From: Armatimonadota bacterium
GTDB lineage: Bacteria; Armatimonadota; SYMT01
NCBI GenBank assembly: GCA_046292385.1
Contig: JBKBRF010000049.1
Coordinates: forward strand, 1 to 49,902
Reading direction: 5' to 3'
DNA: 49,902 nucleotides
Positions 2,912-44,129 of this stretch are shown here, piece by piece. The position numbers and the translations under genes are program-made. Position 1 is the first letter of the stretch, and every line of letters begins with the position of its first letter. The notes under the pieces were generated by a model. That model did no database searches. It was given only the letters and a program-made list of their open reading frames with translations, and was not told where the DNA came from.

Positions 2912-3061
2912 CGTATTGCGTATCGCGTATTGCGTAGCGGGTAGCTTTCTCCGCTCTGCCTAACGTCGTGCCGGGCGGGAGGCCTCTCAGCGCCTCGCCC
3001 GGCAGGATGCTCCGCCAGGCGGTGCTGGCACGCCGCTACGCAATACGGAATACGGAATACG
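2912..3061. repeat. Inverted repeat whose arms are 7-mer tandem repeats (GCGTATT)n / (AATACG[G/C])n
   Basis: Arms 2912-2940 and 3033-3061 are near-perfect reverse complements, between convergent genes. Confidence 0.85.
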
Positions 3062-3859
3062 TCACGATCGCTTACGGGTGAGCTCGTCGGAGAGGAGCGA
3101 CTCCGCGTCTCCGAATGGGTCGCTGTCGAAGGCGCGGGCGGGATCTTCCGGCTGCTGCTCCTGCTCCTCGTCCTGCTCGATCACGGCGGCGCGGACGATC
3201 CCCTCGGTCTCCGCCTGGACCCGCTCCCTCGACTTCGGCGGCGGAACCGGCCGTGGGGGTGGCGGCGCGGCGGCGCGGGGGCTCGCGGGCGGAGCGGCGG
3301 TACGCTGCCGGGAGGAGGCGTAGAGAAGCACTGCCCCGGCCCAGAGCAGCGCCAGCGCGGCGGCGGCGGCGGCGCTGATCGCGCCGAGCGCGTGGACCAG
3401 CACAGCAACTCCAGCGCCGAGGAGCGCGGCGCCGGCGGCCGGAGCGAACGAAGCGGGCGCGACCGGCGCGGAGACTTCGGCGGAGACGGTGACTTCTGCC
3501 GGAGCCGCGGCGGGGGTCTCCAGGTCGGCCAACCGCTCCAGGTACTCGGCCACGGAGAGGAGCACCTGTCCCAGGGTGCCGTCCTGCTCTCCCTGGCGGG
3601 CCATCTCCACGTAGAACGGCCCGAAGATCTGCGGATGCCGCGCGAGCGCCACGTGCAGCTCGCGGCCGTCTTCCAGCAGGCTCGAGATCTCCCCGGACGC
3701 CGCCAGGATGCGCGCGTCGCCGCTGTGGCTGCTGGCGATCCGCAGCGCCCGCAGCACGTCGACCCCCGCCTGGAGCATCGCCCCGAGCTGCCGGGTGAAG
3801 CTGGCGAGCGCCCTCGGATCGACCTCCGAGATCCGGGCTGACGCGGGTGTCTCCGACAT
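3062..3859 (-). CDS. Single-domain type II secretion F (GspF/PilC-like) protein with TM hairpin and low-complexity tail
   Basis: FTRQLGAMLQAGVDVLRAL...GEQDGTLGQVL matches one T2SSF domain; second domain absent. Confidence 0.8.
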   Translation of the reverse strand: MSETPASARISEVDPRALASFTRQLGAMLQAGVDVLRALRIASSHSGDARILAASGEISSLLEDGRELHVALARHPQIFGPFYVEMARQGEQDGTLGQVLLSVAEYLERLADLETPAAAPAEVTVSAEVSAPVAPASFAPAAGAALLGAGVAVLVHALGAISAAAAAALALLWAGAVLLYASSRQRTAAPPASPRAAAPPPPRPVPPPKSRERVQAETEGIVRAAVIEQDEEQEQQPEDPARAFDSDPFGDAESLLSDELTRKRS

Positions 3860-3886
3860 CGAGCTCCTCTTCCCTACCGTGATTCG

Positions 3887-4981
3887 TTAACCCTCGATCC
3901 CGCACGCGCGCCGGAGGTCCCTCTCCAGCGCCACGTACGGCTCGCTTCCTACCTTCTCCGGCGCGCGCGGAGCTGCCTCCACGACGGCAGTCAGGGCCCG
4001 GCAGCGCTCGATGCGGGCCGCCGATTCCGCCAGCCGTGCCTCCGAAAGCTCCCCCTCCCGCACCGCGCGGCAGACCGCCGCGTGCATCCGCTGCTGCGTC
4101 TCCAGGGAGTGGCAGACCAGCAGCATGTCAGCCCCCGCCTGCAGCGCCAGCACCGCCGTCTCCTCCGGCGTCCAGTGGTCCGCGATCCCGCGCATCTCCA
4201 GGCAGTCGGTCACGACCAGCCCGTCGAATCCCAGCTCCTCCCGCAGGAGGCCGGTCAGGATCCGCCGGGAGAGCGTGCCCGGGCGCTCCGGATCGAGCTC
4301 CCGGAACAGGATGTGCGCGCTCATCACCGCGGGCGCTCCCGCCGCGAGCGCCGCCCGGAACGGCACCAGCTCCACCGCGTCCAGGCGCGCCCGGTCGACC
4401 GCCAGCTCCGGCAGCGCCAGGTGGCTGTCGACGCTCGTGTCTCCGTGTCCGGGGAAGTGCTTCACCACCGGCACGATTCCCGCCTCTAGGTAGCCCGCCA
4501 GCGCCGCGCAGCCGTGCCGTGCCACCCGCTCCGGATCGGCGCCGAAGGAGCGGTTGTTGATCACCGGATTCCGGGGGTTATTGTTGACGTCGATGTCCGG
4601 CGCGAAGTTCACGGTGATCCCGAGTGCCGCCAGCTGTTCCCCGATGGCGCGCGCCGCGGCCTGGGTCGTCTGCGGCTGGTCCAGGCGGCCCAGGCACTCG
4701 TTCGGGACGAAGACGAGACCGGGACGCGCCAGCCGCGCGATGCGGCCGCCCTCCTGGTCGATGCCGATCAGCGGGGAGCGCTTCGCGCGGGCGCGGAGCC
4801 GGGTGGTCAGCGCGGCGATCTCTTCGGCCGTCCCCAGGTTGCGCGGGAAGAGCACGAGACCGCCGACCTGCAGCTCTTCCACCAGCAGGCGGGCGTGGTC
4901 GTTGTAGCCGGCCGGGTCCGGCTCGTCGCCGTCTCCCCAGCCGCACCAGAGCACCTGCCCCGCCAGCTCTTCCAACGTCAC
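3887..4981 (-). CDS. nagZ: Beta-N-acetylhexosaminidase (GH3)
   Basis: IGIDQEGGRIARL, KHFPGHGDTSVDSH, VTDCLEM; GTG 4981 overlaps the upstream stop (GTGA). Confidence 0.9.
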   Translation of the reverse strand: MTLEELAGQVLWCGWGDGDEPDPAGYNDHARLLVEELQVGGLVLFPRNLGTAEEIAALTTRLRARAKRSPLIGIDQEGGRIARLARPGLVFVPNECLGRLDQPQTTQAAARAIGEQLAALGITVNFAPDIDVNNNPRNPVINNRSFGADPERVARHGCAALAGYLEAGIVPVVKHFPGHGDTSVDSHLALPELAVDRARLDAVELVPFRAALAAGAPAVMSAHILFRELDPERPGTLSRRILTGLLREELGFDGLVVTDCLEMRGIADHWTPEETAVLALQAGADMLLVCHSLETQQRMHAAVCRAVREGELSEARLAESAARIERCRALTAVVEAAPRAPEKVGSEPYVALERDLRRACGIEG

Positions 4982-6090
4982 CGCGCGTCCCCTTTCCCCA
5001 CCGTGCGGGCTTCCCGCGCCGCGAAGACCCCCGCCGCCGCCGCCGCGCGGAAGAACAGCTCGTCCTGCTCCAGCGTGCGGCCCATCGTCCGCAGCTCCGC
5101 GCGGTACGGCTCCAGCGCCGCCATCGCGGGGGCGGCGTCGGTCTCCACGCAGTGCCACGCCGCCAGCTCGCGCGCGAGCGCGGGCTCCAGGCCGGCCGGG
5201 ACCGGTACCCGCACCGGCACCCGGAGGCAGCGAAGCAGCGTGCGGGTGTGGTGGCTGAGCCCCTGGTGACGCGGGCGCGGGTCGGCCATGCTGAGCCGCG
5301 GCAGGAGCAGCGCGGCGCCTCCCAGTGTATCGCAGGCGTGGAGCGCCTCGGCCAGCCCCAGCCCGCTGAACCCGTACTCCGTGCCGGTGCCGGCGTTCCC
5401 CGGCCCCTGGGAGACCACTACCAGCTCCGCGTCCGCCGCCGCCTTCGCCGCCGCGAGACCGGAGTAGACGTTGACCGCCTCCAGGTCGCCGCCGAACCCC
5501 TGGCCCACCGTGACCGAGGCGCAGAGGTGGCCGTCCGAGCGGAGGCGCGCGGCGAGGCGGCTGAATCCGAACGGGAGCGCGGCGGTATCGAGCTGGAGCA
5601 GCGCCACGCGCAGGCCCGGCACCGCCCATCGGGCGGCGAGCACCGCCGCCGCCGCCTGGCTGTGGAGCTCCGCGGCGAGGACCGGCATCCGCTCCAGGCC
5701 GGTAAACCGCTCGAGCGCCTGCCGGTGCGGCGACACCTCTTCCTCTACGGAGCAGACCCGCATCTGGAGCGGGGTGTAGCGCAGCTTGAGCAGATGGCCC
5801 GCCTCGCGCCCGGGGAACGAGCCCGCCCCCGGCTCGCCCTCCAGCCGGGCGATCACGAAGTGGACGCCGCCCGTCCCGAGTGAGAGGGCGAGCGCGGTGG
5901 TGTTCAGGAGCACGCGGTCGCCCGGCTGGAGCGCGGGGACCAGGCCGGTATAGGCGACCGCGCGCGCGGCGCGGCCCTCCACCTCCACGTCCCACTCGGA
6001 GCACCCGGCCCGCACCACGCGGCAGGCGCCCAGCACCCCCACCCGGCGCTCCATCGCCGGCGGACCGGGCACGGAATCGGACTCGCTCAC
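4978..6090 (-). CDS. DUF3866-family protein
   Basis: LLNTTALALSLGTGG, GHLLKLRYTPLQ, GQGFGGDLEAVN, GPGNAGTGTEYGFSG; GTG 6090 with GAGGAGG RBS. Confidence 0.8.
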   Translation of the reverse strand: MSESDSVPGPPAMERRVGVLGACRVVRAGCSEWDVEVEGRAARAVAYTGLVPALQPGDRVLLNTTALALSLGTGGVHFVIARLEGEPGAGSFPGREAGHLLKLRYTPLQMRVCSVEEEVSPHRQALERFTGLERMPVLAAELHSQAAAAVLAARWAVPGLRVALLQLDTAALPFGFSRLAARLRSDGHLCASVTVGQGFGGDLEAVNVYSGLAAAKAAADAELVVVSQGPGNAGTGTEYGFSGLGLAEALHACDTLGGAALLLPRLSMADPRPRHQGLSHHTRTLLRCLRVPVRVPVPAGLEPALARELAAWHCVETDAAPAMAALEPYRAELRTMGRTLEQDELFFRAAAAAGVFAAREARTVGKGDAR

Positions 6091-6100
6091 CAGCGCCTCC

Positions 6101-6478
6101 TCATCGGCGGGAGGCCCCCTCCAGCGCCGCGGCCCAGGTGACGAACCGCTCGGCGAGCCAGGCATCCTGCTCCGGCGTGAGTCCGGTCCAGTCCAGGCGC
6201 GCCCGGCCGTTCCGGCACGAGACCACCTCCGCGTCGAACGACTGGCTGCTGCCGTCGAGTGCGTCGACCAGCCGCAGCGGCCAGCGGGTGCCGGGATTGA
6301 CGGGACACGAGAGCATCAGCGACACCCCGGTGCGGCTGACGTCCCGCACGAAGCCCGGCACTCCCTCCAGCACGAGCGGCGGAAGCTCCTCGCGCGGCAG
6401 CACCTCGCGGCGATCCGCCGGAGGCGCCGCCAGCGGGGTCGAGGGACGAGGGACACTTCTCGAATCAGGTGCGGACAC
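6101..6478 (-). CDS. Stand-alone PilZ-domain protein (possible c-di-GMP receptor)
   Basis: DRREVLPR (RxxxR-like) and DVSRTG (DxSxxG), followed by beta-barrel-like EVVSCR; GTG 6478 with GGAGG RBS. Confidence 0.65.
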   Translation of the reverse strand: MSAPDSRSVPRPSTPLAAPPADRREVLPREELPPLVLEGVPGFVRDVSRTGVSLMLSCPVNPGTRWPLRLVDALDGSSQSFDAEVVSCRNGRARLDWTGLTPEQDAWLAERFVTWAAALEGASRR

Positions 6479-6492
6479 CGGGCACCTCCCTC

Positions 6493-7356: not shown

Positions 7357-7583
7357 GGCTGGAAGTCCTCCTCATCCGCGGGACGCGTAGGCTGCTGCTC
7401 CCGTATTCGCCCCCCGCCCGGGGCGTTCCTCTAGCAGCCGCGCCGGCCCCGCTCGCTAGCCGAGCAACAAGTTCTGAACAATTTTCTTCGCGCAGGCACG
7501 AAACAGGAAGGAAACAGGCGTGACACGGAGAAATGTCCCCCGTCGATAAGGTAACCACCTTAATCCACCAGGAGGGATTGGCG

Positions 7584-7727
7584 TTGGAAGGCTATTGCGT
7601 AAAGTGCCGCGCCAAGAAGGCGATCAAGGATGCCAAGCAGGTCACGATGAAGAACGGGCGCCCGGCTACGGAGGGCGTCTGTCCGGACTGCGGCACCAAG
7701 ATCTTCAAGATCGGCAAGGCAAGCTAA
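7584..7727 (+). CDS. Small basic zinc-ribbon protein (DUF5679-like), 47 aa
   Basis: YCVKCR...MKNGRPATEGVCPDCGTKIFKIG; TTG start 7 nt after GGAGGG. Confidence 0.85.
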   Translation: MEGYCVKCRAKKAIKDAKQVTMKNGRPATEGVCPDCGTKIFKIGKAS

Positions 7728-7851
7728 GGAGACCGCCCGCTCTCGGGCTCGTTTCCCTTTTCCCCGTAACTAACTCACCACACAACACCCGGCATCCGCC
7801 GGCCCCCTGAAAGCCTCTTTCAGCTTCCTCGAACTCAACCCCGAGATCCCC

Positions 7852-7883
7852 GCCCCCGTCTCCCCGACGGGGGCTTTTCTTTT
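7852..7883 (+). terminator. Rho-independent terminator
   Basis: GCCCCCGTC-TCCCC-GACGGGGGC followed by TTTTCTTTT. Confidence 0.85.
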
Positions 7884-7911
7884 CGCACGCCGATCGGCGC
7901 CGCACCGCCGC

Positions 7912-9524: not shown

Positions 9525-9550
9525 GGGCAGCGGAACCTCCGGAAGGCGGT

Positions 9551-9735
9551 CTTCCGACACAGGGGGACACAGGAAAGCCGACGAGAGAAGCACAGCATGC
9601 GCTTCTCTGACTGACGGCCCTCCAGCAGTGGTGCCATGCCTGGAAGGCAAGCACGCTCCAACAGACAGCACTCCGGCTCGACAGGTTTCCTTCTGTGTCC
9701 CCTTCTGCCAGTTCTGTGTCCTCTCTGTGTCGAAG
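9551..9735. repeat. Inverted repeat with GACACAG-based tandem-repeat arms
   Basis: 9551-9575 CTTCCGACACAGGGGGACACAGGA versus 9712-9735 TTCTGTGTCCTCTCTGTGTCGAAG; extra TTCTGTGTCC at 9691. Confidence 0.7.
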
Positions 9736-9748
9736 AGAGAGCCAGGAT

Positions 9749-10765
9749 CTACGCCGCCAGCCGGGTCATCTCGGCCCCGCCGTCTTCGCTAGCCGCTTCC
9801 GACTCCTGCGGGTCTTCCGCTTCTTCCCGCTTCGGCTCCCGGCGGCGGACCAGCAGAACCGAGTGCTCCGCCGTCTTCAGCAGCCGGTCCGCCACGCTCC
9901 CCAGGACCAGCCCCTCGATCAGAGAGGCGCCCCGCGCGCCGGCGACCACCAGGTCCGCCTTCCCTTCCTGCGCGAGCTGGAGCAGCTCGTGCGCCGGGTC
10001 CCCCTCCCGCACCACGCAGGCGGGCTTCCGCCCCGCCCGCGCCAGCGGCTGCGCGGCCCGGTGGAGCAGCTCCACCGCTTCCAGGCGCTGCTGCTGCTGG
10101 ACCTCCACCGTGATCTCCTCCAGCATCCCCAGGTACTCCGGCGTGAGCGCTACGTACGGGTAGTAGGGACGGGTGACGTGGCAAAGGGTGATCCGGCACT
10201 CCGGCGGCAGCGGCAGCCGCGCCAGCAGCTCCACCGCCTCCGCCGCATGCTCGGAGCCGTCGACCGCCGCCACCACGTGCCGCAGGTCGTGCCGGAGCGG
10301 GCGCGCTACCAGCACCGGAATCGGCGCGTGCTTCGCCACGTTGCGAGAGACGCTTCCGAGCAGGAACTCCCCCAGCCCGGAAAGCCCGTGCGAGCCGAGC
10401 AGCAGGAGGTCGACCGGCTCCTCTTCGGCCGCCGCCAGGATCTCCGCCGCCGCGGCGCCCATGCGCGCTTCCGGCACCACCGCCACTCCGGCCCGCCGCA
10501 GCGGCGCGCCGGCTGCCTCCGCCGTGCGGGTGGCCCACTCCAGCTCCGCGCGCCGCACCGGCTCCGGCAGGTGCCAGTCGAGCCCGGAGACCACGGTGAG
10601 GATCCGGATGGTGCTGCCGGCGGGCAGCGGCAGGCGCTGGAGCAGCGCCCCGGCGGTCGCGGCCTCTTCGGACCCGTCCGTCGCGTAGAGCACGCGCAGC
10701 GGCGGGGCGGCAGCGGACGCGGTCGAGAGGATGACGGCGCGTTGATCGGAAGGCGTCTGGGCCAT
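9749..10765 (-). CDS. Tandem universal stress protein (two USP domains)
   Basis: Two copies of the VxxDGS...GSHG/GARG...LGSV pattern. Confidence 0.92.
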   Translation of the reverse strand: MAQTPSDQRAVILSTASAAAPPLRVLYATDGSEEAATAGALLQRLPLPAGSTIRILTVVSGLDWHLPEPVRRAELEWATRTAEAAGAPLRRAGVAVVPEARMGAAAAEILAAAEEEPVDLLLLGSHGLSGLGEFLLGSVSRNVAKHAPIPVLVARPLRHDLRHVVAAVDGSEHAAEAVELLARLPLPPECRITLCHVTRPYYPYVALTPEYLGMLEEITVEVQQQQRLEAVELLHRAAQPLARAGRKPACVVREGDPAHELLQLAQEGKADLVVAGARGASLIEGLVLGSVADRLLKTAEHSVLLVRRREPKREEAEDPQESEAASEDGGAEMTRLAA

Positions 10766-11802: not shown

Positions 11803-11913
11803 TCCGCCGGGCTCCTCCTCATCGACGGGCGTCTGGATGCCCGAGGAGCGAGGAGCGGAGAGATCGCCGGAGGTTTGACCTCCGGCGGACCCAATTCGCG
11901 GAGGGGAAGAGGT

Positions 11914-12092
11914 AGATCGCCGGCAGTCAACTGCCGGCGGAGCCAATCCGCGGCGCTCACTCCGCAGCGCCCTTGCTTCCGGAGCGCGGAAGGTTCCGCC
12001 GCCCCTCCGGGGCGGATCTGTTGGGCCGGCGTGAGTCCGGGGGCTGCGCTGCGCTCGCACCCCGGCTATCGTCTCGCGCCCCTCCGGGGCGC
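11914..12092 (+). repeat. ~175-bp REP-like composite repeat, copy 1
   Basis: GATCGCCGGCAGTYRACTGCCGGCGGAGCCAATCCGCGG...GCCCCTCCGGGGCG, similar to copies near 18.1-18.5 kb and 49.3-49.7 kb; degenerate first module at ~11861-11902. Confidence 0.9.
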
Positions 12093-12119
12093 CGTCCCCG
12101 CCGTCCCCGCCATGCGCCG

Positions 12120-12217
12120 CTCTCCGTCCCGCCGTCTCTCCGTCTCTCCGTCTCTCCGTCTCCGAAGGTCTCTCCGCCTCTCCGTCCCTCCGTCCCCGAA
12201 GGTCTCTCCGTCTCCGC
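12120..12217 (+). repeat. Octamer tandem array (CTCTCCGT)n
   Basis: Visible imperfect 8-nt periodicity. Confidence 0.85.
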
Positions 12218-12224
12218 CAGGCAG

Positions 12225-18088: not shown

Positions 18089-18460
18089 AATCGCCGGCGA
18101 GTGCGGGCGGAGCCGACCCGCGGCGCTCACTCCGCACCACCCGTGCTTCCGGATCGCGGAAGGTTCCGCCGCCCCTCCTCCAGGGCGGGACGTGGCGGCG
18201 GCTCCGAATCCGGGGGCTGCGCTGCGCTGACCCCCGGCTATCCTCTCGCGCCCCTCCGGGGCGCGGGGAGAGATCGATCGCTGGGATCGCCGGCAGTTGA
18301 CTGCGGGCGGAGCCAATCCGCGGAGCTCACTCCGCACCGCAATTCCCAAGGAGCGTGCGTAGCTCCGCCGCCCCTCCAGGGCGGATCTGTTGGGCCGGCG
18401 TGAGTCCGGAGGCTGCGCTGCGCTTGCACCCCGGCTATCGTCTCGCGCCCCTCCGGGGCG
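18089..18460 (+). repeat. ~175-bp REP-like composite repeat, copies 2 and 3 in tandem
   Basis: Units ~18089-18263 and ~18285-18460 match copy 1 and the 49-kb pair. Confidence 0.9.
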
Positions 18461-18484
18461 ACATCCCCGCCATGCTCGCTGCGC

Positions 18485-18545
18485 TCCGTCTCTCCGTCTC
18501 TCCGTCTCTCCGTCCCGCCGTCTCTCCGTCCCTCTGCCTCTCTGT
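18485..18545 (+). repeat. Octamer tandem array (CTCTCCGT)n
   Basis: Visible 8-nt periodicity directly after the composite repeat. Confidence 0.85.
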
Positions 18546-32035: not shown

Positions 32036-32133
32036 TCCAGGGGTCAGGTTTCAGGGGCCAGGGACCAGGTTCGCCCCGCCCCGTGACCGGTGTTTCCCTG
32101 TTCCGACCCTGGACCCTGGACCCTGGACCCTGG
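32036..32133. repeat. Inverted repeat with 7-mer tandem arms (CCAGGGN)n / (GACCCTG)4
   Basis: 32036-32069 versus 32105-32133, between mnmE and bioB. Confidence 0.8.
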
Positions 32134-32138
32134 CACAG

Positions 32139-33515
32139 CTACTTCCCCACGCAGAAGCGCGCGAAGATCTGGCTGATCGTTTCTTCGGTCACCGTCTCGC
32201 CTGTGATCTGCCCCAGCGCTTCCGCCGCCAGGCGCAGGTCGAGGGCGAGCGCCGCCTGGTCGAACCCTGCCTCGGCGGCCTCGATCGCGCGGTCGAGCGC
32301 CTCCGCCGCGGAGCGCAGCCGTGCTTCGTGACGCACGTTGCTCACCAGCACCGCCTCCGGGCCGCCGCTGTCGCCGACCAGCGTCTCCGCCAGCACTTCC
32401 TCCAGCCGGGGCAGGCCCTCTCCCGTCACGGCGGAGACGGCCACCACCGGCACCGGCTTCCCCAGGAGCGGCTCCAGCGCCTCGGCGGCCGGGGCGGCGC
32501 GGAGATCGGCTTTGTTGGCGGCGACCACCAGCCGGCCCCCCCGCAGCTCGTCTGCCAGGGCGCGGTCTGCTTCCGTGAGCCCCTCGGCGGCGTCGAGGAC
32601 CCAGACCACCAGGTCGGCCTGTGCCACCTGGGCGCGTGTCCGCTCCACGCCGAGCGCCTCCACGCGGTCCGCCGTCTCGCGCAGTCCGGCGGTGTCGATG
32701 GCGCGCACGGGCACGCCGCGCAGGTTGAGCGACTCCTCGATCACGTCCCGCGTGGTGCCGGGAACGTCGGTCACGATGGCGCGCTCCTCGCCCAGCAGCG
32801 CGTTCAGCAAGCTGCTCTTGCCGACGTTCGGCCGCCCCGCCAGCACCAGCGCGGCGCCTTCCCGGTAGAGGCGCCCGGCGTCCGCAGTGCGGAGCAGCGC
32901 CGCCGCCCGCTCCCGCACCTGCCGCGCGCGCTCCGCCACCTCCGCGTCCGCCGGCGGCTCCACATCGTCCGGAAAGTCGATCGCCGCCTCGATCTCCGCC
33001 AGCAGCGTGATCAATGAGTGCCGCAGCCCCGCGATCTCCCGGGAGAGCCGCCCCGAGAGCTGCGCCGTGGCAACCCGCAGCGCCGCGTCGGTGCGGGCGC
33101 GGATCACGTCGATCACTGCCTCCGCCGCGGCCAGGTCCATGCGCCCGTTCAGGAAGGCGCGCTGCGTAAACTCCCCCGGCTCCGCCAGCCGCGCGCCGTG
33201 CGCCAGGAGGCCCCGGAGCACCTGGCCCTGCACGAGGTTGCTCCCGTGGCACGCCAGCTCGACCACGTCCTCGCCGGTGTAGCTGTGGGGGGCGGCGAAA
33301 TAGGTCAGCAGGCAGTCGTCCAGCCGCCCCTCCTCCCCCGGGCGCGCCACCCACCCATAGTAAGCGCGGTGGCTCCGGGGAGGGTCCGGGAGGGGCCGCT
33401 CGCGGCGAAAGAGGGCGCGGGCGCAGTCCAGGGCGCGCGGGCCGCTGGCCCGCACGATGCCGATTCCCGCCTCTCCCGGGGCGGTCGCGATGGCGGCGAT
33501 GGTGTCTCCGGTCAC
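32139..33515 (-). CDS. mnmE: tRNA modification GTPase MnmE
   Basis: DTIAAIATAPG, GEFTQRAFLNGR, GRPNVGKSS, GTTRD, DTAG, NKAD, FCVGK. Confidence 0.97.
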   Translation of the reverse strand: MTGDTIAAIATAPGEAGIGIVRASGPRALDCARALFRRERPLPDPPRSHRAYYGWVARPGEEGRLDDCLLTYFAAPHSYTGEDVVELACHGSNLVQGQVLRGLLAHGARLAEPGEFTQRAFLNGRMDLAAAEAVIDVIRARTDAALRVATAQLSGRLSREIAGLRHSLITLLAEIEAAIDFPDDVEPPADAEVAERARQVRERAAALLRTADAGRLYREGAALVLAGRPNVGKSSLLNALLGEERAIVTDVPGTTRDVIEESLNLRGVPVRAIDTAGLRETADRVEALGVERTRAQVAQADLVVWVLDAAEGLTEADRALADELRGGRLVVAANKADLRAAPAAEALEPLLGKPVPVVAVSAVTGEGLPRLEEVLAETLVGDSGGPEAVLVSNVRHEARLRSAAEALDRAIEAAEAGFDQAALALDLRLAAEALGQITGETVTEETISQIFARFCVGK

Positions 33516-38042: not shown

Positions 38043-40667
38043 ATGGCTCGCCGCTCGCCCGAGAATCGAAATTCCGCGTCTCGCTCCCGCCGGCCCCGCA
38101 CCGGCGCGGCAGCGGGGGCGGCGCTGCTGGCGATCACCCTCGCCGGGGCGTGCGCCGGCCTGGCCGCGCCGGGGAGCGAAGGCGTCGATCTCTCCCGGAT
38201 TCCGCCCGCCGCGGCGCGGAAGGTCGACTTCGTCCGCGACATCCGCCCGATCCTCAACGCGAAATGCGTCGCCTGCCACGGCCCGGCCAAGCTGATGGGC
38301 GGGCTCCGGCTCCACAACCGGGCCGACGCGCTGGCCGGCGGCGACAGCGGCGCGGCGATTGTGCCGGGGAAGGGCGCGGAGAGCCGGCTGGTCCACTACG
38401 TCGCCGGCGCGGTCGACGGCAAGCTGATGCCTCCCGCGGGCGAGCGGCTGTCGGCGGAGCAGGTGGGGCTGCTGCGCGCCTGGATCGACCAGGGTGCCGA
38501 ATGGCCCGCCTCGGCCGACGCGGAGACGCCCCGCAACCCGCACTGGGCGTTCCAGCCGGTAAAGCGCCCCGCCGTTCCCGCGGTGAAGCGAAAAGGGTGG
38601 GTAACGAACCCGATCGACGCCTTCGTCCTCGCCCGGCTGGAGCAGCGCGGCCTCCGTCCCTCGACGCCCGCCGATCGCGTCACCCTGCTCCGCCGGGTGA
38701 GCCTCGACCTGACCGGCATCCCGCCGACCCCGGAAGAGGTCGACGCCTTCGTGAACGACCGCCGTCCCGGCGCGTACGAGCGGGTGGTCGACCGTCTCCT
38801 CGCCAGCCCGCATTACGGAGAGCGGTGGGGCCGTCACTGGCTCGACCTCGCCCGCTATGCGGACAGCAACGGCTACACCATCGACAGCCCGCGCCAGATG
38901 TGGCCCTACCGGGACTGGGTGATCCGCGCGCTGAACGACGACATGCCGTTCGACCGGTTCACCGTGGAGCAACTCGCGGGCGATCTGCTGCCGAACGCCG
39001 GCGAGTCCCAGAAGATCGCCACCGGCTTCCACCGCAACACGCTCATCAACGAGGAAGGCGGCACCGACCCGGAGCAGTTCCGGGTAGAGGCGGTCGTCGA
39101 CCGCGCCAACACCACCGGCGCGGTCTGGCTCGGGCTCACCGTCGGCTGCGCGCAGTGCCATACGCACAAGTTCGATCCGATCACCCAGAAGGAGTACTAC
39201 CGGCTCTTCGCCTTCTTCAACACGCAGGACGAGCCGACCCTCGCCTTCCCCACCCCGGAGCAGATGCGGAAGCAGTCCGAGCTGAGGGCGGCCCTAGCGG
39301 CGGCGCAGCGGGAGCTGACCGCCTACGAAAAGGCGCACCCGCAGGGGGAGAACGATCCGGAGCGGCTCCAACTGGCGCGGCGGGTGAACGACCTGAAGCG
39401 GGAGGAGAAGGAGCTGGCGGGCGAGATCCCGACCGCGATGGTCCTCGCCGAGCGGAAGCAGCCGCGCGAGACGTTCGTCCACCTCCGGGGCGACTTCTTG
39501 CGGAAGGGACAGCCGGTCCAGCCCGGCGTCCCCTCCGTGCTTTCGGCGCTCCAGGTCGATTCTCCCCGCCCGGCAAACCGGCTCGACCTCGCCCGGTGGC
39601 TCGTCTCCCCGGAGAACCCGCTCACGTCCCGCGTGACCGTGAACCGGGTGTGGATGCGCTACTTCGGCACCGGCTTGGTGGAGACCGAAAATGACTTCGG
39701 GCTCCAGGGCACCCCGCCCACGCACCCGGAGCTTCTCGACTACCTCGCCTCTGTCTTCGCGACAGCGGGTACTTCTCACGTAGACGACGGAGAGACTGTA
39801 GAGACAGAGGGACGGAGAGACAGAGGGAAAGAGGGAGTCCGAACCGCCGCTTACCGAGAAGCGCAGCCTGCCACGCGGGCACAGCTCTCTTCGTCTCTCC
39901 GTCCCTCTGTCTCTCCGTCACGTGGATTGGGCTGGTCGCTCAAGGCGCTTCACCGGCTCATCGTCACCAGCAGCACCTACCGGCAGGCGTCGCACGCGCG
40001 GGAGGACCTGGCGGCGAAGGATCCGCAGAACCGGCTGCTGGGGCGGCAGAACCGGCTGCGGCTCGACGCGGAGATCATCCGCGACTCCGCCCTCGCGGCC
40101 AGCGGCCTCCTCTCGCGCAAGATCGGCGGGCCCAGCGTCTTCCCGCCGCAGCCCGCCGGCACCGACGGGTTGACCCAGGTGAAGCGGAAGTGGACCGTCA
40201 GCAAAGGGGAGGACCGGTACCGCCGGGGGATGTACACCTGGCACTGGCGCTCCAACCAGTACGCCCTCTTCGCCACCTTCGACGCGCCGAACGGGAACAC
40301 CGCCTGCACGCGGCGGATGCGGTCCAACACGCCCACCCAGGCGCTAATGCTGGCGAACGACGAGGCGTTCGTCGAGATGGCGCAGGCGCTGGCAGCCCGC
40401 ACCCTGCGAGAGGCCCCGGCCACCGAGGACGCGCGGCTCCGCTACGCCTTCCGCCGCTGCCTCTCCCGCGAGCCACTGCCCGAAGAGCTGCAGCGGCTAA
40501 TCCGCTTCCTGCGGCTGCAGGTGCTCCGCTTCCGCGGGGCTCCCGGGGATGCAGAAGCCGCCGCCCCGAAGGACCGCCCGGAAGAAATGGATACGCCCAC
40601 CGCCGCCGCCTGGACCGCCGTAGCACGCGTGCTGCTCAACCTGGATGAATTCGTTACCCGAGAGTAG
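38043..40667 (+). CDS. Planctomycete cytochrome C (PSCyt1) + DUF1549 + DUF1553 protein
   Basis: CVACHG, NPIDAFV, YGERWGRHWLDLARYADS, CAQCHTHKFDPI, HPELLDYLA, RLDAEIIRD, LLNLDEFVTRE. Confidence 0.93.
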   Translation: MARRSPENRNSASRSRRPRTGAAAGAALLAITLAGACAGLAAPGSEGVDLSRIPPAAARKVDFVRDIRPILNAKCVACHGPAKLMGGLRLHNRADALAGGDSGAAIVPGKGAESRLVHYVAGAVDGKLMPPAGERLSAEQVGLLRAWIDQGAEWPASADAETPRNPHWAFQPVKRPAVPAVKRKGWVTNPIDAFVLARLEQRGLRPSTPADRVTLLRRVSLDLTGIPPTPEEVDAFVNDRRPGAYERVVDRLLASPHYGERWGRHWLDLARYADSNGYTIDSPRQMWPYRDWVIRALNDDMPFDRFTVEQLAGDLLPNAGESQKIATGFHRNTLINEEGGTDPEQFRVEAVVDRANTTGAVWLGLTVGCAQCHTHKFDPITQKEYYRLFAFFNTQDEPTLAFPTPEQMRKQSELRAALAAAQRELTAYEKAHPQGENDPERLQLARRVNDLKREEKELAGEIPTAMVLAERKQPRETFVHLRGDFLRKGQPVQPGVPSVLSALQVDSPRPANRLDLARWLVSPENPLTSRVTVNRVWMRYFGTGLVETENDFGLQGTPPTHPELLDYLASVFATAGTSHVDDGETVETEGRRDRGKEGVRTAAYREAQPATRAQLSSSLRPSVSPSRGLGWSLKALHRLIVTSSTYRQASHAREDLAAKDPQNRLLGRQNRLRLDAEIIRDSALAASGLLSRKIGGPSVFPPQPAGTDGLTQVKRKWTVSKGEDRYRRGMYTWHWRSNQYALFATFDAPNGNTACTRRMRSNTPTQALMLANDEAFVEMAQALAARTLREAPATEDARLRYAFRRCLSREPLPEELQRLIRFLRLQVLRFRGAPGDAEAAAPKDRPEEMDTPTAAAWTAVARVLLNLDEFVTRE
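39776..39924. repeat. Octamer-armed inverted repeat inside the DUF1553 coding frame
   Basis: Purine arm (GAC[AG]GAG[AG])n at 39786-39837 versus pyrimidine arm at 39885-39919. Confidence 0.85.
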
Positions 40668-41194
40668 GGGGTAGCGTTTAGGGTGTAGCGTGTAGGCGTC
40701 CCGAATGACTTTCCAAGCTCAAATGCCGGCACCTTCGGTGGTAGAAACCGTTCGGATGGAGCGATCGATAACCGCGATGCAAACGGAGAGCTATCGGGAC
40801 CTGAAGGTGTGGCAGAAGGGGATGGATCTTGCGGTCGCCAGTTATCAGCTCACGCGAAACTTCCCGCGGGAAGAGCAATTCAGCCTCACGAGCCAGATTC
40901 GTCGAGCGGCGGCTTCGATTCCCGCCAATATTGCGGAGGGATACGGAAGAGGACACCGGCCGGAGTACACACAGTTCCTGCACATTGCTCAGGGCAGCCT
41001 GAAGGAGCTGGAGACGTTACTGCTCTTGAGCGGACGCGTGGAGGTTTCTAGTAAAGATCACCTGACGCCGGCGCTGGAGCTGTGTGACGAAGTCGGAAGA
41101 ATGCTTCGAACCATGATCCGCGGCTTGAACAGCCGTTAGCCGCCATGCACCCCCTACCGGTCATCTACACGCTACACCCTAACCGCTACACCCT
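40666..41194. mobile_element. Putative cassette: four-helix-bundle gene flanked by a 30-bp heptameric inverted repeat
   Basis: Arms 40666-40695 and 41165-41194 match 28/30 as reverse complements; interior less GC-biased; mobility is inferred. Confidence 0.55.
40777..41139 (+). CDS. Four-helix-bundle protein (23S rRNA intervening-sequence protein / Avd-like family)
   Basis: SYRDLKVWQKGMDL, FPREEQFSLTSQIRRAAASIPANIAEGYGR, FLHIAQGSLKELET; alternative ATG at 40756 or 40705. Confidence 0.92.
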   Translation: MQTESYRDLKVWQKGMDLAVASYQLTRNFPREEQFSLTSQIRRAAASIPANIAEGYGRGHRPEYTQFLHIAQGSLKELETLLLLSGRVEVSSKDHLTPALELCDEVGRMLRTMIRGLNSR

Positions 41195-41233
41195 CTGCCA
41201 GCCGTGTCACACCACAGCCTGGGAGAACGACTG

Positions 41234-42691
41234 ATGTCTCGCGATAGTCAATCTCGCCTGCTGCAGGTCACTCGACGCCATCTCTTTCAGCAGTGCGGCG
41301 TGGGGCTCGGCTCCATCGCCCTGTCTCAACTGGTGGCGGAGGAGGCGGGGGCGGCACCGGCGAAGTCGCGAGCCGCGCGTCCGGCCCCGGAGCCGCTGGC
41401 GCCGAAGCAGACCCATTTTCCCGCCAGGGCGAAGCGGGTGATCTACCTGCACATGGCCGGCGGACCGAGCCAGCTCGACCTCTTCGATCCGAAGCCGAAG
41501 CTCCGGGAGCTGCACGGCCAGGTGACGCCGAAGTCGCTGCTGGAGGGGAAGCGGTTCGCGTTCCTGAAGCCGGACGCGAAGCTGCTCGGCAGCCCTCGCG
41601 AGTTCAAGCGGTACGGCCGGTGCGGCGCCGAGGTCAGCGACCTGCTCCCCCACCTGGCCGGGATCGTGGACGACCTCTGTATCGTCCGCACGATGGCGAC
41701 CGACGTCTTCAACCACGGCCCCGCGAAGATGTTCATCCAGAGCGGCGCGCCGCAGCCCGGCCGCCCCGCCATCGGCTCCTGGCTCACCTACGGGATCGGC
41801 AGCGAGTCGCGGGACCTGCCCGGCTTCGTCGTGCTGCAGTCCGGTCCCCGCGGTCCCCGCGGCGGCGCGGTGCTCTGGAGCAGCGGCTTCCTGCCGACCA
41901 CCTACCAGGGCGTGCCGTTCCTGCCGGGCGCCACGCCGATCGTCGACCTCGCCAGCCCGCGCGGCTTCAACCCGACCCGCCAGCGCGACTTCATCGACGC
42001 CCTGGGCGACCTGAACCGGACCCGTCTCCGCACGATCGGCGATCCGGAGATCGCCACCCGCATCGCGGCGTACGAGATGGCCTACCGGATGCAGCTCAGC
42101 GCGCCGGAGCTGATGGACCTCCGCCAAGAGGACCCGAAGACGCTGGAGAGCTACGGCGCCCAGCCCGGCAAGCACTCGTTCGCCAACAACTGCCTCCTCG
42201 CCCGGCGCCTCGTGGAGCGGGGCGTGCGCTTCGTCCAGCTCTACCACACCGATTGGGACCACCACGGCGGGCCGAACATGGACCTGGAGACCCACTTCCC
42301 CACCATCTGCCGGGAGGTGGACCAGCCGTGCGCCGCGCTGGTGCGGGACCTGAAGCAGCGCGGCCTGCTGGACGACACGATCGTGATCTGGGGCGGCGAG
42401 TTCGGACGTACGCCCATGGGCGAGGCGCGGGAGACGACCGGGCGCGACCACCACATCGAGGCGTTCACCATGTGGATGGCGGGCGGCGGCTTCAAGGCGG
42501 GAGCAGTGATCGGCTCCACCGACGAGCTCGGCTACAACCCGGTCGACGAGCGCGTCCACGTGCACGACCTGCACGCCACGCTGCTGCACCTGCTGGGGCT
42601 GGACCACAAGCGGCTCACCTACCGCTTCCAGGGGCGAGACTTCCGGCTCACCGACGTGCACGGCAACGTAGTGCAGAAGCTGCTCGCCTAG
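41234..42691 (+). CDS. DUF1501-family protein
   Basis: TRRHLF, KRVIYLHMAGGPSQLDLFDPKP, CLLARRLVERGVRFVQ, WGGEFGRTP, GRDFRLTDVHG; GGGAGA RBS. Confidence 0.92.
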   Translation: MSRDSQSRLLQVTRRHLFQQCGVGLGSIALSQLVAEEAGAAPAKSRAARPAPEPLAPKQTHFPARAKRVIYLHMAGGPSQLDLFDPKPKLRELHGQVTPKSLLEGKRFAFLKPDAKLLGSPREFKRYGRCGAEVSDLLPHLAGIVDDLCIVRTMATDVFNHGPAKMFIQSGAPQPGRPAIGSWLTYGIGSESRDLPGFVVLQSGPRGPRGGAVLWSSGFLPTTYQGVPFLPGATPIVDLASPRGFNPTRQRDFIDALGDLNRTRLRTIGDPEIATRIAAYEMAYRMQLSAPELMDLRQEDPKTLESYGAQPGKHSFANNCLLARRLVERGVRFVQLYHTDWDHHGGPNMDLETHFPTICREVDQPCAALVRDLKQRGLLDDTIVIWGGEFGRTPMGEARETTGRDHHIEAFTMWMAGGGFKAGAVIGSTDELGYNPVDERVHVHDLHATLLHLLGLDHKRLTYRFQGRDFRLTDVHGNVVQKLLA

Positions 42692-42695
42692 CCTC

Positions 42696-42742
42696 CGGAG
42701 ACGGAGAGACAGAGCGACGGAGAGACAGAGTGAAGGAGAGAC
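42696..42742 (-). repeat. Octamer array (GAGACGGA/GAGACAGA)n, opposite orientation to the arrays at 12.1, 18.5 and 49.7 kb
   Basis: Visible 8-nt periodicity right after the DUF1501 stop. Confidence 0.75.
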
Positions 42743-42767
42743 CGGGGACCTCGTGCGCGGTCGGTTT

Positions 42768-42875
42768 CCTTTAGCCCCCGTTCGGGGGGGGTGAACCTTT
42801 AGCCTTTAGCCCCCCGTTCGGGGGTGAACCTTTAGCCTTTTGACTTTTGACTTTTGACTTTTGACTTTTGACTTT
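42768..42875. repeat. Heptamer array (CCTTTAG/ACTTTTG)n interrupted twice by a mini-hairpin
   Basis: CCTTTAG-[CCCCCGTTCGGGGG..TGAA]-CCTTTAG twice, then CCTTTTG and (ACTTTTG)4. Confidence 0.85.
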
Positions 42876-42896
42876 AAGTAGATGGAATCGACAAGC

Positions 42897-43898
42897 ATGG
42901 CGGACGTGATCCTGACCGGACTGGCGGACGAGGGACCGGTTTCCAAGCGGGCGGAAGAGCAGCTCGCGATAACGCGGGCGCTCGGGCTCTCCTACTACAG
43001 CCTGCGCTTCGTCGACGTGGGGGGCGGCGTGAAGAACGCGATGCAGCTCACGCCGGACGAGGTGGCGCGCCTCCGCAAGCTGCACGAGGAGTACGAGGTG
43101 CGGGTCTCGTCCCTCGCGTCCCCGATCGGCAAGGTGAAGCTGCTCGACGCGGACGACGGCACCGCCAACCGCTTCGTGCCGTTCCAGCAGTACCTGGAGA
43201 CGGAGGTCGCCCGTGCCATCGAGCTGGCCACCGCGTTCGGCACGCGCCTGATCCGCGGCTTCTCGTTCTACCCGCCGAAGGAAGACGATCCGTGGAAGCA
43301 CGTGCCCCTGGCCGCGGAGCAGCTCCGCGCCATCGCGGAGGCATGTGCGGCGACCGACCTCTACTTCGGGCTGGAGGTGGAGGCGAACCTGGTCGGCCGG
43401 AACGGGGAGCTGGAGGCGGCGCTCTGGGAGGCGGTGGCGCACCCGAACCTGGGGCTCGTCTTCGACGGCGGGAACCTGGTCTGCCAGGGTTACACCACGG
43501 AGCAGGTGTTCCAGCAGTACCAGGCGATGAAGCCGGGCCTGATGTGGCTGCACGTCAAGGACTACCGCGATCCGGAGGCGGCCGGAGACGGGCGGGTCGT
43601 CGGTCACGTGGCGGAAGACGCGCTGAAGCACTTCGTCCCCGCGGACCAGGGCGACTCCGGCCACGACCGGATCTTCGCCGACCTGAAGGCGGAGCTGCCC
43701 GCGCTGAAGGGACGCCTGCAGGCGCGCGGCATCCCCGGCGTCTTCGTCGACCTGGAGCCGCACGTGAAGGGCGGGGGCCAGTTCGGCGGCTTCAGCGGAC
43801 CCGACGGCTATGGCGTCGCCCTTCGCGCGCTCTGCCGCGTGCTGGATGGAGCCGCGGTGAGCTACCATCTCACCAGCTTCGAAGAGCTGCGCCGCTAG
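42897..43898 (+). CDS. Sugar phosphate isomerase/epimerase (xylose-isomerase-like TIM barrel)
   Basis: GLADE, SPIGK, IRGFSFY, GLEVE, VFDGGN, LHVKD, LEPH; ATG 42882 also possible. Confidence 0.85.
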   Translation: MADVILTGLADEGPVSKRAEEQLAITRALGLSYYSLRFVDVGGGVKNAMQLTPDEVARLRKLHEEYEVRVSSLASPIGKVKLLDADDGTANRFVPFQQYLETEVARAIELATAFGTRLIRGFSFYPPKEDDPWKHVPLAAEQLRAIAEACAATDLYFGLEVEANLVGRNGELEAALWEAVAHPNLGLVFDGGNLVCQGYTTEQVFQQYQAMKPGLMWLHVKDYRDPEAAGDGRVVGHVAEDALKHFVPADQGDSGHDRIFADLKAELPALKGRLQARGIPGVFVDLEPHVKGGGQFGGFSGPDGYGVALRALCRVLDGAAVSYHLTSFEELRR

Positions 43899-43908
43899 GG
43901 AACGCATA

Positions 43909-44129
43909 TCACCGCAGAGACATACACAACGCAGAGAGAACCCGAACCTGAATTGAACCGCCAAGAGCGCAAAGGACGCAAAGAGGGACCGGAAGAGACA
44001 AACCCCGGGGTCGCTGTACGGGGCTCGAGACGCGCAGCAGGCCCATCCCTCTTGGCGAGCTTGGCGCTCTTGGCGGTAAAGGCTGGTTCCCTCAGCGCTC
44101 TCTGCGTCTCTGCGGTGAATCAGGTTCGG
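43909..44129. repeat. Nested inverted repeats with 9-mer-periodic arms
   Basis: Outer 43909-43942 / 44085-44118; inner 43957-43988 / 44046-44077. Confidence 0.85.

Follow-up and report, generated by a model that had tools for sequence, protein, structure and literature searches.

Heptamer repeats are over-represented in many bacterial genomes. MITEs and REP/REPIN-RAYT repeats are short palindromic multi-copy intergenic elements, and the palindromic elements of Rickettsia are inserted in frame in genes. For Nostoc and other bacteria an excess of heptamer simple sequence repeats was described (Mrazek 2007, as summarised in PMC4679880 and PMC4692102). In Xanthomonas the heptamer GGGAATC is intergenic and forms many convergent pairs with one array per strand, 70 and 75 pairs being given (PMC4692102). 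The available text of this account deals with G-quadruplexes and makes no mention of IVS-like cassettes. The intervening sequence (IVS) of the Coxiella 23S rRNA contains an S23p ORF; its 28-bp terminal stem, with tandem GACAGAT heptamers, is cut by RNase III (PMC4990558). Its authors see the 23S rRNA IVS as a selfish, possibly mobile element (PMC4990558).

A stretch of 49,902 nt from an Armatimonadota bacterium (contig JBKBRF010000049.1), here called the window, was analysed together with the rest of the genome. Six inverted-repeat cassettes had been claimed in an initial annotation of the window, and all of them are present at the following positions.

2912 to 3061, no strand assigned: cassette 1, full-length copy of the ~150-nt palindromic family 1, with 59 genome copies of at least 110 nt
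9551 to 9735, no strand assigned: cassette 2, degenerate GACACAG-type hairpin with a unique loop; only the arms recur in the genome
32036 to 32133, no strand assigned: cassette 3, short hairpin with CCAGGGG-type and GACCCTG arms and a unique loop
39776 to 39924, forward strand: cassette 4, GACGGAGAG-type palindrome, read in frame as an insert of ~50 amino acids
40666 to 40695, no strand assigned: 5' arm of cassette 5, GTAGCGT/TTAGGGT heptamers, period 7
40705 to 41139, forward strand: cargo gene of cassette 5, four-helix-bundle / 23S rRNA IVS protein (S23p; PF05635, TIGR02436)
41165 to 41194, no strand assigned: 3' arm of cassette 5, 93% complementary to the 5' arm
43909 to 44118, no strand assigned: cassette 6, nested double hairpin with CGCAGAGA outer arms and CGCCAAGAG inner arms

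We consider it fairly probable that this genome contains several palindromic families with inverted arms of 7-8-nt units, built like the ORF-bearing 23S rRNA IVS, located after the stop codons of ordinary genes and copied as arms plus content, with stems cut by RNase III. Most likely, these are IVS-type selfish stem-loop cassettes and their MITE-like gene-less relatives.

The arm pairs were determined by repeat search. Cassette 1 has arms of 66 nt (2912-2977 and 2996-3061, 73% complementary) with GCGTATT heptamers, an inner stem of GCGTAGCGG/CCGCTACGC and, at its centre, a conserved hairpin. The arms of cassette 4 comprise 29 nt (39800-39828 and 39886-39914, 90%), those of cassette 5 30 nt with 469 nt between them. 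For cassette 6 an inner pair (43957-43988 and 44046-44077, 32 nt, 88%) is nested in an outer pair (43909-43942 and 44085-44118, 34 nt, 79%). Arrays of period 7, 8 or 9 were detected by TRF in the arms of five cassettes; cassette 2, with its degenerate GACACAG units, gave no TRF row. The z-scores of RNA folding against dinucleotide shuffles were -8.8, -4.0, -1.7, -5.8, -3.9 and -9.0 for cassettes 1 to 6, cassette 3 thus being weak by this measure. No Rfam family reached threshold in the window. The cassettes exceed chance, as had been expected. The window contains 11 inverted repeats of score at least 14, compared with a mean of 1.5 (maximum 4) in 20 second-order Markov resamples, and 4 with periodic arms, compared with 0.1 (maximum 1), the detector used here finding four of the six cassettes.

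Cassette 5 resembles the 23S rRNA IVS of Coxiella, Leptospira and others in its build. In both, a small PF05635 gene is located in the loop of a long stem of terminal inverted repeats (PMC4990558), and in both the stem consists of tandem heptamers with a purine-rich 5' arm (PMC4990558). The stems are of similar dimensions, with arms of 30 nt, 93% complementarity and period 7 in cassette 5 and 28 bp with GACAGAT in Coxiella (PMC4990558). The protein, announced as a four-helix bundle by the initial annotation, matches PF05635 (E 4.7e-38) and TIGR02436 (E 8.4e-36). Cassette 5 represents the gene-bearing form in its intact state, with the S23p/PF05635 gene enclosed by a 30-bp heptamer stem. The GC3 of the gene is 0.69 (measured on 40738-41139), compared with ~0.9 in the neighbour genes. 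The sites differ. The 23S rRNA IVS is found in helix 25 or 45 of the 23S rRNA, whereas cassette 5 lies between a DUF1549/DUF1553 and a DUF1501 gene; no 23S rRNA gene is contained in this assembly. Furthermore, most cassettes here are gene-less, including the other five of the window, unlike the ORF-bearing IVS.

The 5' arm of cassette 5 begins at the stop codon of the PSD1-family (DUF1549/DUF1553) gene and provides TAG in all three frames. The 3' arm ends 9 nt before the called GTG start of the DUF1501 gene (41204), and an in-frame ATG of this gene at 41234 follows 39 nt after the arm. In relative G005 the 529-nt cassette is replaced by TAG, 6 nt and then ATG, and in relative G003 by a 28-nt spacer. 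Cassette 5 is an insertion between two genes spaced 6-28 nt in relatives. A target-site duplication was not found in this one filled/empty comparison. Mobility of the cassettes is suggested by their copy number, by their lineage specificity and by a single clean pair of empty sites; a transposase, a target-site duplication or another mobility signature was not found for the cassettes.

The genome of 7 Mb contains ~670 intergenic arrays of 7-8-nt units and ~246 inverted pairs, taken from a small set of recurrent units. With at least three copies, 446 period-7 arrays are intergenic and 68 coding, and the corresponding numbers for period 8 are 225 and 57, in a genome that is 84% coding by our gene calls. 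A reverse-complement partner (score at least 14, within 1.2 kb) was detected for 321 of 1478 arrays, compared with 16 for reversed and 13 for complemented control queries. The 796 period-7/8 arrays reduce to 148 canonical units, the commonest being present in 85, 67, 60, 54 and 48 arrays. The units differ between the loci of the window, as had been stated, but they recur across the genome. Likewise, the loops were regarded as unique; this applies to cassettes 2 and 3, but those of cassettes 1, 4 and 6 are conserved in other copies. The hairpin loops group into sequence families of 81, 23, 6, 5 and fewer members. Cassette 6 belongs to a multi-copy family with the loop cluster of 23 (best match 86% over 220 nt). 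The 59 copies of family 1 are whole elements including loops. They are only 70-80% alike, so a spread of this family, if any, would be old. Its consensus fold is mostly invariant; covariation is weak, with 21 compensatory cells compared with a mean of 12.6 (maximum 18) in shuffles. Family 1 was not found in full length in 25 relatives, of which G005 alone gave four matches of 27-32 nt in the arm region. Cassettes 1, 4 and 6 are classed as copies of gene-less, multi-copy, lineage-specific, MITE-like families, and cassettes 2 and 3 as degenerate singletons built from recurrent units.

Plain microsatellites expanding by slippage in spacers, with the inverted pairs and the gene link arising from small genes that inserted or survived in hairpins, are quite unlikely to explain these data. 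About two thirds of all arrays have no inverted partner, and the unpaired ones show no strand preference (111 G-rich and 92 C-rich relative to transcription); repeat numbers also differ between Coxiella strains (PMC4990558). However, the copies have non-repetitive termini and loops in common, as seen for the ends of the C16 cassette (45 nt at 100% between copies) and the core of family 1. Slippage would not lead one to expect the arm polarity of 189 to 9 or the co-divergence of units and cargo described below either.

Cassette 4 is translated in frame inside an ORF of 874 amino acids (38043-40667). The insert is located in a linker of the PSD1 (DUF1553) domain and is missing or shorter in homologues. 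Within a single protein family, 14 of 25 paralogues have an element of this type, always at the identical linker position. As with the Rickettsia palindromic elements, a palindromic repeat is translated in frame and adds a peptide to a tolerant loop. The Rickettsia elements are scattered over unrelated genes, whereas the cassette 4 type is confined to one linker.

With GC3-based gene calls, the claimed closeness to stop codons was confirmed for cassettes 1, 2, 3, 5 and 6. Cassette 1 is flanked by convergent genes, and on the right it directly adjoins (0 nt) the stop of gene 3062-3859(-). Cassette 2 follows 13 nt past the stop of the Usp gene 9749-10765(-), cassette 3 5 nt past that of mnmE 32139-33515(-) and cassette 6 10 nt past that of gene 42897-43898; for cassette 5 the distance is 0 nt. 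Genome-wide, 203 short-loop hairpins were placed: 124 between co-directional, 45 between convergent and 22 between divergent genes, 10 inside genes and 2 at contig edges. Their median distance is 12 nt from the upstream stop and 74.5 nt to the next start. In 246 hairpins the 5' arm was G-rich in 189, C-rich in 9 and neutral in 48 cases. This strict polarity requires a directional process, e.g. transcription, Rho or DNA synthesis. Xanthomonas shares the intergenic period-7 arrays in convergent pairs and the G-rich-first polarity (PMC4692102). A single unit occurs there (PMC4692102), whereas in the present genome the units are many, loops are conserved and the repeats are linked to PF05635/GxxExxY genes.

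The start of the hairpins at a median of 12 nt past stop codons, their strong folding and their enrichment in convergent spacers (45 of 191 placed hairpins compared with 730 of 4781 spacers) would agree with ordinary transcription terminators or 3'-end stabilisers formed and retained in place, with no history as copied elements. We regard this as very unlikely. An intrinsic terminator has a G+C-rich stem followed by a U-tract, but a U-tract (at least 6 T in the next 12 nt) was found downstream of none of 202 gene-following hairpin ends (mean 2.26 T). Whole elements recur with conserved loops, family 1 is in full length in none of 25 relatives, and some hairpins carry genes. A 3'-end role is not applicable to the 22 hairpins between divergent genes, and 10 more lie inside genes. 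The expectation that relatives are free of the cassettes held for the empty sites of cassette 5 and for 17 gene-end loci, including five mnmE 3' ends without a cassette 3-like hairpin; no periodic-arm hairpin was found at these loci with the detector that finds four of the six window cassettes, the flanking genes of cassettes 1, 2, 3 and 6 not being syntenic in relatives, so that gene ends and not orthologous empty sites are compared.

The common architecture of the cassettes was borne out; it is also the build around PF05635 and GxxExxY genes, both in this genome and across many phyla. Inverted-repeat flanks of score at least 16 were detected for seven of eight PF05635 and all four GxxExxY (PF13366/TIGR04256) genes of this genome, compared with 3 of 200 random small genes. 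Such flanks were also present at 20 of 27 PF05635 loci in other genomes of the phylum and at 24 of 39 in named MAGs of many phyla, with period 7 in 22 of these 24. For each of the 12 gene cassettes the arms were found again at further loci, with 18 to 233 BLAST hits; for the gene bodies no such recurrence was found. The distance between heptamer units decreases with increasing protein identity (Mantel r = -0.265; 0 of 2000 permutations as low), the mean unit distance being 0.0 at 80% identity or more, 1.4 at 60-80% and ~3.1 below 50%. Since close PF05635 relatives come from related genomes, vertical descent alone may account for this co-divergence of unit and gene. In family 1 one PF05635 gene is located between a full and a half element. 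Gene-less families have termini in common with gene-bearing cassettes. The empty cassettes had been proposed as eroded gene cassettes, which received no direct support: remnants of PF05635 or GxxExxY were not detected in gene-less loops at E <= 1.

Gene-less copies with the termini of a gene-bearing copy, and one gene lineage per repeat type, resemble MITEs and REP/REPIN-RAYT systems. Like MITEs, family 1 (59 copies) and the cassette 6 family are multi-copy short elements with terminal inverted repeats. Neither the target-site duplication nor the transposase-encoding parent of MITEs was seen for the cassettes; the proteins of gene-bearing copies are PF05635 or PF13366 and not transposases. The termini also differ, being tandem short-period arrays here and fixed inverted repeats in those systems. 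In a further explanation, the elements would be REP/REPIN-like and moved in trans by Y1 (IS200/RAYT-type) transposases that the genome encodes and that act on DNA hairpins, with the PF05635 and GxxExxY genes as passengers. Of the arrays of the window that had been noted as single-armed, those at 12120, 18485 and 49731 turned out to be 3' tails of a ~190-nt repeated element, each with a short purine-rich partner upstream.

11845 to 12214, forward strand: ~190-nt repeat locus with a short GGAGCGGAGAG stretch, one repeat copy (11913-12103) and a (CTCTCCGT)n tail (12120-12214)
18090 to 18542, forward strand: ~190-nt repeat locus with tandem copies (18090-18264 and 18285-18469) and a (CTCCGTCT)n tail (18484-18542)
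42696 to 42876, no strand assigned: array-filled intergenic spacer with (GACGGAGAGACAGAGC)x2.7, a 33-nt unit x2.2 and (CTTTTGA)x5.6
49341 to 49763, forward strand: ~190-nt repeat locus with tandem copies (49341-49530 and 49540-49730) and a (CCGTCTCC)n tail (49733-49763)

Two strong PF01797 (Y1) genes are encoded in the genome. One (C22:55627-55965) adjoins inverted copies of the 3' part of the octamer-tailed ~190-nt repeat, and 39-nt palindromic repeats of its own flank the other. In REP/REPIN-RAYT systems, inverted copies of the repeat flank the Y1 gene. For the heptamer-armed repeats this arrangement was not found, as none of their families is located beside either Y1 gene in the 1.4-kb regions examined. 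Heptamer arms consistently surround PF05635 and GxxExxY genes, in this genome as in other phyla. A role of the Y1 enzymes in moving the cassettes is unlikely.

The initial annotation suggested a process that writes locus-specific tandem repeats on both flanks; repeats added to both 3' ends of a break would be one example. Each gene cassette does have its own unit, and the G-rich strand runs 5' to 3' toward the cargo on both sides (189 compared with 9), as two-3'-end addition would give. The data nevertheless render this model highly improbable. Units are family-specific and common to tens of loci, a few of them dominating the 796 arrays, and family 1 is present in 59 whole copies. In 153 hairpins of 10 unit families the left arm matched the right arm of its own locus with a mean of 20.1 and that of other loci with 19.6 (one-sided p = 0.13), which argues against local repeat writing. 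The order of variant units is mirrored between the arms of cassette 5, which suggests that one arm was copied from the other or that both descend from a common source, and not that two additions occurred independently. Moreover, units co-diverge with the cargo gene, and no polymerase or reverse transcriptase was found in the cassettes.

For the IVS-type cassettes preferred here, arms plus content together would be the unit copied to new sites. The arrays would then drift by slippage, with the complementarity of the arms kept by selection or inter-arm copying. On transcription, the upstream cistron would end in the long stem, which RNase III would cut as in the rRNA IVS. Cutting would separate or insulate the flanking RNAs, making the insertion tolerable. 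The G-rich arm would be kept first because a C-rich arm transcribed first would be an exposed Rho loading site. The genome encodes both RNase III and Rho. By analogy, the cassettes are probably processed by RNase III, and the former guess of mRNA intervening sequences or processing stems fits the closest known system, the RNase III-excised 23S rRNA IVS with its stem heptamers (PMC4990558).

A more far-reaching interpretation is put forward tentatively, and we think it rather doubtful. In it, the mobile elements would form a so far undescribed class, bounded by hairpins, with the PF05635 (S23p) and GxxExxY cassettes as its autonomous members. The gene-less hairpins and arrays would be seeded or mobilised by the gene lineage whose arms they have, similar to RAYT and REPIN, with the arms kept complementary by arm-to-arm copying. 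The recurring arms of all 12 gene cassettes, the PF05635 gene in family 1 and the co-divergence of unit and gene speak for it. If true, it would account both for the long-noted heptamer excess of many bacteria and for how rRNA intervening sequences arose.

As seen from the 14 of 25 paralogues with in-frame copies, such repeats can become protein parts. If the stems are RNase III sites, operon transcripts would be cut at many gene ends, which matters for annotation and for models of gene expression. With ~246 hairpins from a handful of unit families, 12 small-gene cassettes with arms of kinds also present on gene-less copies and one insertion with clean empty sites, this genome is a compact case that ties the excess of heptamer repeats to the questions of how rRNA intervening sequences arise and spread and what their S23p genes do.

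Of the source assembly (7.04 Mb in 91 contigs, approximately 69% G+C), one whole contig of 49.9 kb forms the window. For mnmE the closest matches were found in MAGs of Fimbriimonadales and Armatimonadales with 50-56% identity. The six inverted-repeat cassettes with short-unit arms described in the initial annotation were all found at their positions, and their arm pairs and arrays were reproduced with a repeat finder and TRF:

Cassette 1, 2912-3061: palindromic element of about 150 nt (family 1)
Cassette 2, 9551-9735: inverted-repeat cassette, no TRF row (arrays of the other cassettes were recovered)
Cassette 3, 32036-32133: inverted-repeat cassette
Cassette 4, 39776-39924: in-frame cassette
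Cassette 5, 40666-41194: PF05635 gene in a 30-bp heptamer stem at a DUF1553/DUF1501 gene junction
Cassette 6, 43909-44118: inverted-repeat cassette

Compared with dinucleotide shuffles, RNA folding gave z values of -3.9 to -9.0 for five cassettes and only -1.7 for cassette 3. With our own detector, 11 inverted repeats with a score of at least 14 were counted in the window against 1.5 in Markov resamples, and four inverted repeats with periodic arms against 0.1; this detector recovers only four of the six cassettes. The proposed proximity to stop codons could be shown for five cassettes, one boundary of which is 0-13 nt away from a stop according to GC3-based gene calls. One cassette lies within a gene of 874 aa and keeps the reading frame. 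No Rfam family reached the threshold anywhere in the window.

Throughout the source genome, TRF arrays (one row kept per cluster, at least three copies) with period 7 were located in intergenic regions in 446 cases and in coding sequence in 68, those with period 8 in 225 and 57 cases, at a coding fraction of 84% (own gene calls). Periods 6 and 9 were mostly found in coding sequence. The 796 arrays of periods 7 and 8 comprise 148 canonical units, the commonest with 85, 67, 60, 54 and 48 arrays. For 1478 arrays with periods 6-10, 14 or 16, a partner was searched within 1.2 kb. A reverse-complement partner with a score of at least 14 was detected for 321 arrays (controls: 16 reversed, 13 complemented), and with a score of at least 16 for 237 (controls: 3 and 0). 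Altogether about 246 hairpin pairs were obtained, with peaks of loop length at 20-40 nt (57 pairs) and 100-150 nt (81 pairs). The loops had been regarded as unique. By BLAST they fall into families of 81, 23, 6, 5, 5, 5 and 4 members. Elements of family 1 combine heptamer arms with an inner stem and a conserved hairpin at the centre, and 59 copies have a length of 110 nt or more. Most of these are 70-80% identical to cassette 1, which is a full-length copy; covariation in this family is weak or absent. Cassette 6 is a member of the loop cluster of 23 (top match 86% over 220 nt), cassette 4 has near copies elsewhere in the genome (up to 90% over 143 nt), and cassettes 2 and 3 have the arms alone in common with other loci.

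The placement was investigated with 203 hairpins with loops shorter than 200 nt.

Placement of the hairpins and number of background spacers
Between co-directional genes: 124 of 203; background 3248
Between convergent genes: 45 of 203; background 730
Between divergent genes: 22 of 203; background 803
Inside genes: 10 of 203
At contig edges: 2 of 203

The hairpins followed the preceding stop codon at a median distance of 12 nt, and the median distance to the following start codon was 74.5 nt. A T-rich stretch after the hairpin end was found in none of 202 cases. In 189 pairs G predominated in the 5' arm; C predominated in 9 pairs, and the other 48 were neutral. An inverted repeat is identical on both strands, hence this bias is a true handedness. 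The same handedness is given for convergent heptamer pairs of Xanthomonas in PMC4692102. Unpaired arrays had no strand preference relative to transcription (111 vs 92). A Rho-based cause of the arm polarity is proposed; genes for Rho and for RNase III are both present in the genome.

According to the initial annotation, locus-specific repeats would be written locally on both flanks. For 10 unit families with 153 hairpins the match of an arm to that of its own locus was compared with the match to arms of other loci, and the means were 20.1 and 19.6 (one-sided p = 0.13). Thus, local writing was not supported, and the arms are family-specific instead of locus-specific. Across families and genomes both arms always change together; either selection acts on the arm pairing, or one arm serves as the template for its partner.

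The four-helix-bundle gene predicted for one loop was identified in cassette 5, which encodes a PF05635/TIGR02436 protein ("23S rRNA intervening sequence protein"). The genome holds eight matches to PF05635 and four to PF13366/TIGR04256 (GxxExxY). Flanks with short-unit inverted repeats (score of at least 16 within 250 nt) were detected for seven of the eight PF05635 genes and for all four GxxExxY genes, compared with 3 of 200 random small genes. The eighth PF05635 gene has a full copy of family 1 on one side and a half copy on the other. Each gene cassette has its own unit. By BLAST, the arms of all 12 also match elsewhere in the genome, with between 18 and 233 hits for each cassette, whereas the gene bodies do not recur. 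Two PF05635 cassettes share 72% identity from end to end, arms included. In the cargo gene of cassette 5 (40738-41139) GC3 is 0.69, compared with 0.86-0.96 in its neighbours, which fits a foreign or recent acquisition.

Empty cassettes had been discussed as eroded gene forms. No remnant of PF05635 or GxxExxY was found in any gene-less loop with HMMs and six-frame segments. The observation of the initial annotation, the cassettes themselves, is confirmed, and its interpretation is supported in part; local writing was not supported, and direct support for the erosion of genes was not found. The six-frame HMM scan matched the eight known PF05635 genes, the four GxxExxY genes and one further frame of 342 aa. 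The latter (C5:133838-134863, on another contig of the genome) is open, and its N-terminal domain weakly resembles PF05635 (E 8.4e-07, own HMM); it is absent from the Pfam listing. A further cargo family was not found in the large loops of the genome, nor were the toxin-antitoxin genes suggested for a cargo check found in loops. Long ORFs of large loops were Arg/Pro-rich wrong frames without family and without mutual likeness, a proteasome-subunit gene proved to be an ordinary gene between two separate arrays, and another large loop contains a methyltransferase gene. Several large "loops" between arrays are filled by a dispersed non-coding repeat of about 340 nt with 97 copies of at least 200 nt and up to 90% identity (C16:77367-77763, on a further contig, and 96 other places in the genome, none in the window). 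Tight periodic arms of its own were present in none of 96 copies examined.

Stop codons in all three frames were found in the 5' arms of 20 of 54 PF05635/GxxExxY cassettes, including window 40666-40695, compared with 3.9 expected. The 54 arms contain 132 stops (96 TAG, 32 TGA, 4 TAA). Many heptamer units include TAG, so that three or more units put a stop in every frame. As 15 of the 54 arms are free of stops, this is a tendency rather than a rule.

PF05635 was present in 32 of 61 genomes searched in the phylum, the source genome counted. One locus per genome was used; two with too short flanks were left out and 27 were kept. Flanking inverted repeats with a score of at least 14 occurred at 20 of these 27 loci, in 19 with period 7 and with a different unit in each. 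For comparison across phyla, a protein-based retrieval gave 50 loci from named records covering many phyla; 11 were excluded because their flanks were cut or the match was partial. Arms were found at 24 of the 39 remaining loci; the period was 7 in 22 of the 24, and G exceeded C in the 5' arm in 22 as well. For 45 period-7 cassettes, unit distance was lower the higher the protein identity (Mantel r = -0.265, 0 of 2000 permutations as low). The mean unit distance was 0.0 at 80% protein identity or more (4 pairs), 1.4 at 60-80% (22 pairs) and about 3.1 below 50%. This indicates co-inheritance of unit and gene, not necessarily joint transfer, because the close pairs stem from related genomes. Full-text literature searches gave no paper in which heptamer-armed hairpins are linked in general to genes of PF05635 or GxxExxY; the one such link found was the description of the Coxiella intervening sequence (IVS).

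At the junction of cassette 5, the stop codon of DUF1553 and the start codon of DUF1501 are 6 nt apart in the relative G005, and the relative G003 has a spacer of 28 nt. In a third relative, G006, a Uma2-family gene (PF05685; locus L023:763-1353) is located there, with no heptamer arms evident by eye. A paralogous gene pair on contig C25 of the source genome also carries a PF05635 cassette, with related arms of the TAGGGT type. Small genes of the selfish type seem to land preferentially at the DUF1553/DUF1501 junction. Full-length family 1 was detected in none of 25 relatives; there were only four matches of 27-32 nt to the arm region, all in one genome. In the five relatives that were searched, the genes on the two sides of cassettes 1, 2, 3 and 6 are on separate contigs and not adjacent, therefore only gene ends could be compared. 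No periodic-arm hairpin was found at the matching gene ends in 17 loci of relatives, including five mnmE 3' ends.

Cassette 4 adds about 50 residues to a linker within the PSD1 domain, where homologues have a shorter insert or none. The element was found as follows:

Window 39722-39940 and 13 paralogous sites in the genome: in-frame, palindromic, repeat-encoded insert, in 14 of 25 DUF1553/PSD1 paralogues

Eight of the ten intragenic hairpins of the genome are this element at the identical site in paralogues. By motif scan, the linker of the 25 paralogues measures 7 aa in 8, 13 aa in 3 and 54-67 aa in 14. The encoded peptide reads ETERQRD...LSPSLRPSVSPS or ...GSEFIPHPSSFIPQ and was found at 12 places among the 61 phylum genomes, all in the source genome. 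Arms of paralogues are 82-86% identical, compared with about 57% in the flanking coding sequence; the copies within this genome appear to be homogenised. The orthologue of G005 has a shorter insert which looks related by eye, indicating that the site is old.

Arrays at 12120, 18485 and 49731, described as single-arm arrays, turned out to be tails of a separate structured repeat:

Window 11913-12103, 18090-18469 and 49341-49730; also locus L135:1900-2350: repeat of about 190 nt, G+C-rich, multi-hairpin

Five copies, including two tandem pairs, are located in the window, and the genome contains 18 copies that are 140 nt or longer; in clusters a tail of the type (CTCTCCGT)n follows the last copy. 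RNAalifold gave 53 pairs without compensatory change for the five window copies, and comparison with Rfam weak sub-threshold matches only. On contig C22, inverted copies of the 3' part lie next to a gene for a Y1 transposase (PF01797), and repeat and gene look like a REPIN/RAYT pair. The genome has two Y1 transposase genes, which are tied to palindromes other than the heptamer cassettes. The arrays at 42696-42876 together occupy a single spacer.

The IVS of the Coxiella 23S rRNA is described in PMC4990558 as a selfish element of 428 nt with a terminal inverted-repeat stem of 28 bp and an ORF for the PF05635 protein S23p. According to the same paper, it has two or three tandem GACAGAT heptamers, with the count differing among strains, and its stem is cut by RNase III. 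All these parts are also present in cassette 5. Its site is an operon-like junction, whereas that of the Coxiella IVS is rRNA; a 23S rRNA gene was not found in the assembly of the source genome. Since the parts of cassette 5 are those of the Coxiella IVS, the cassettes of the window are read as IVS-type stem-loop elements together with gene-less MITE-like relatives, and their stems would be processed by RNase III.
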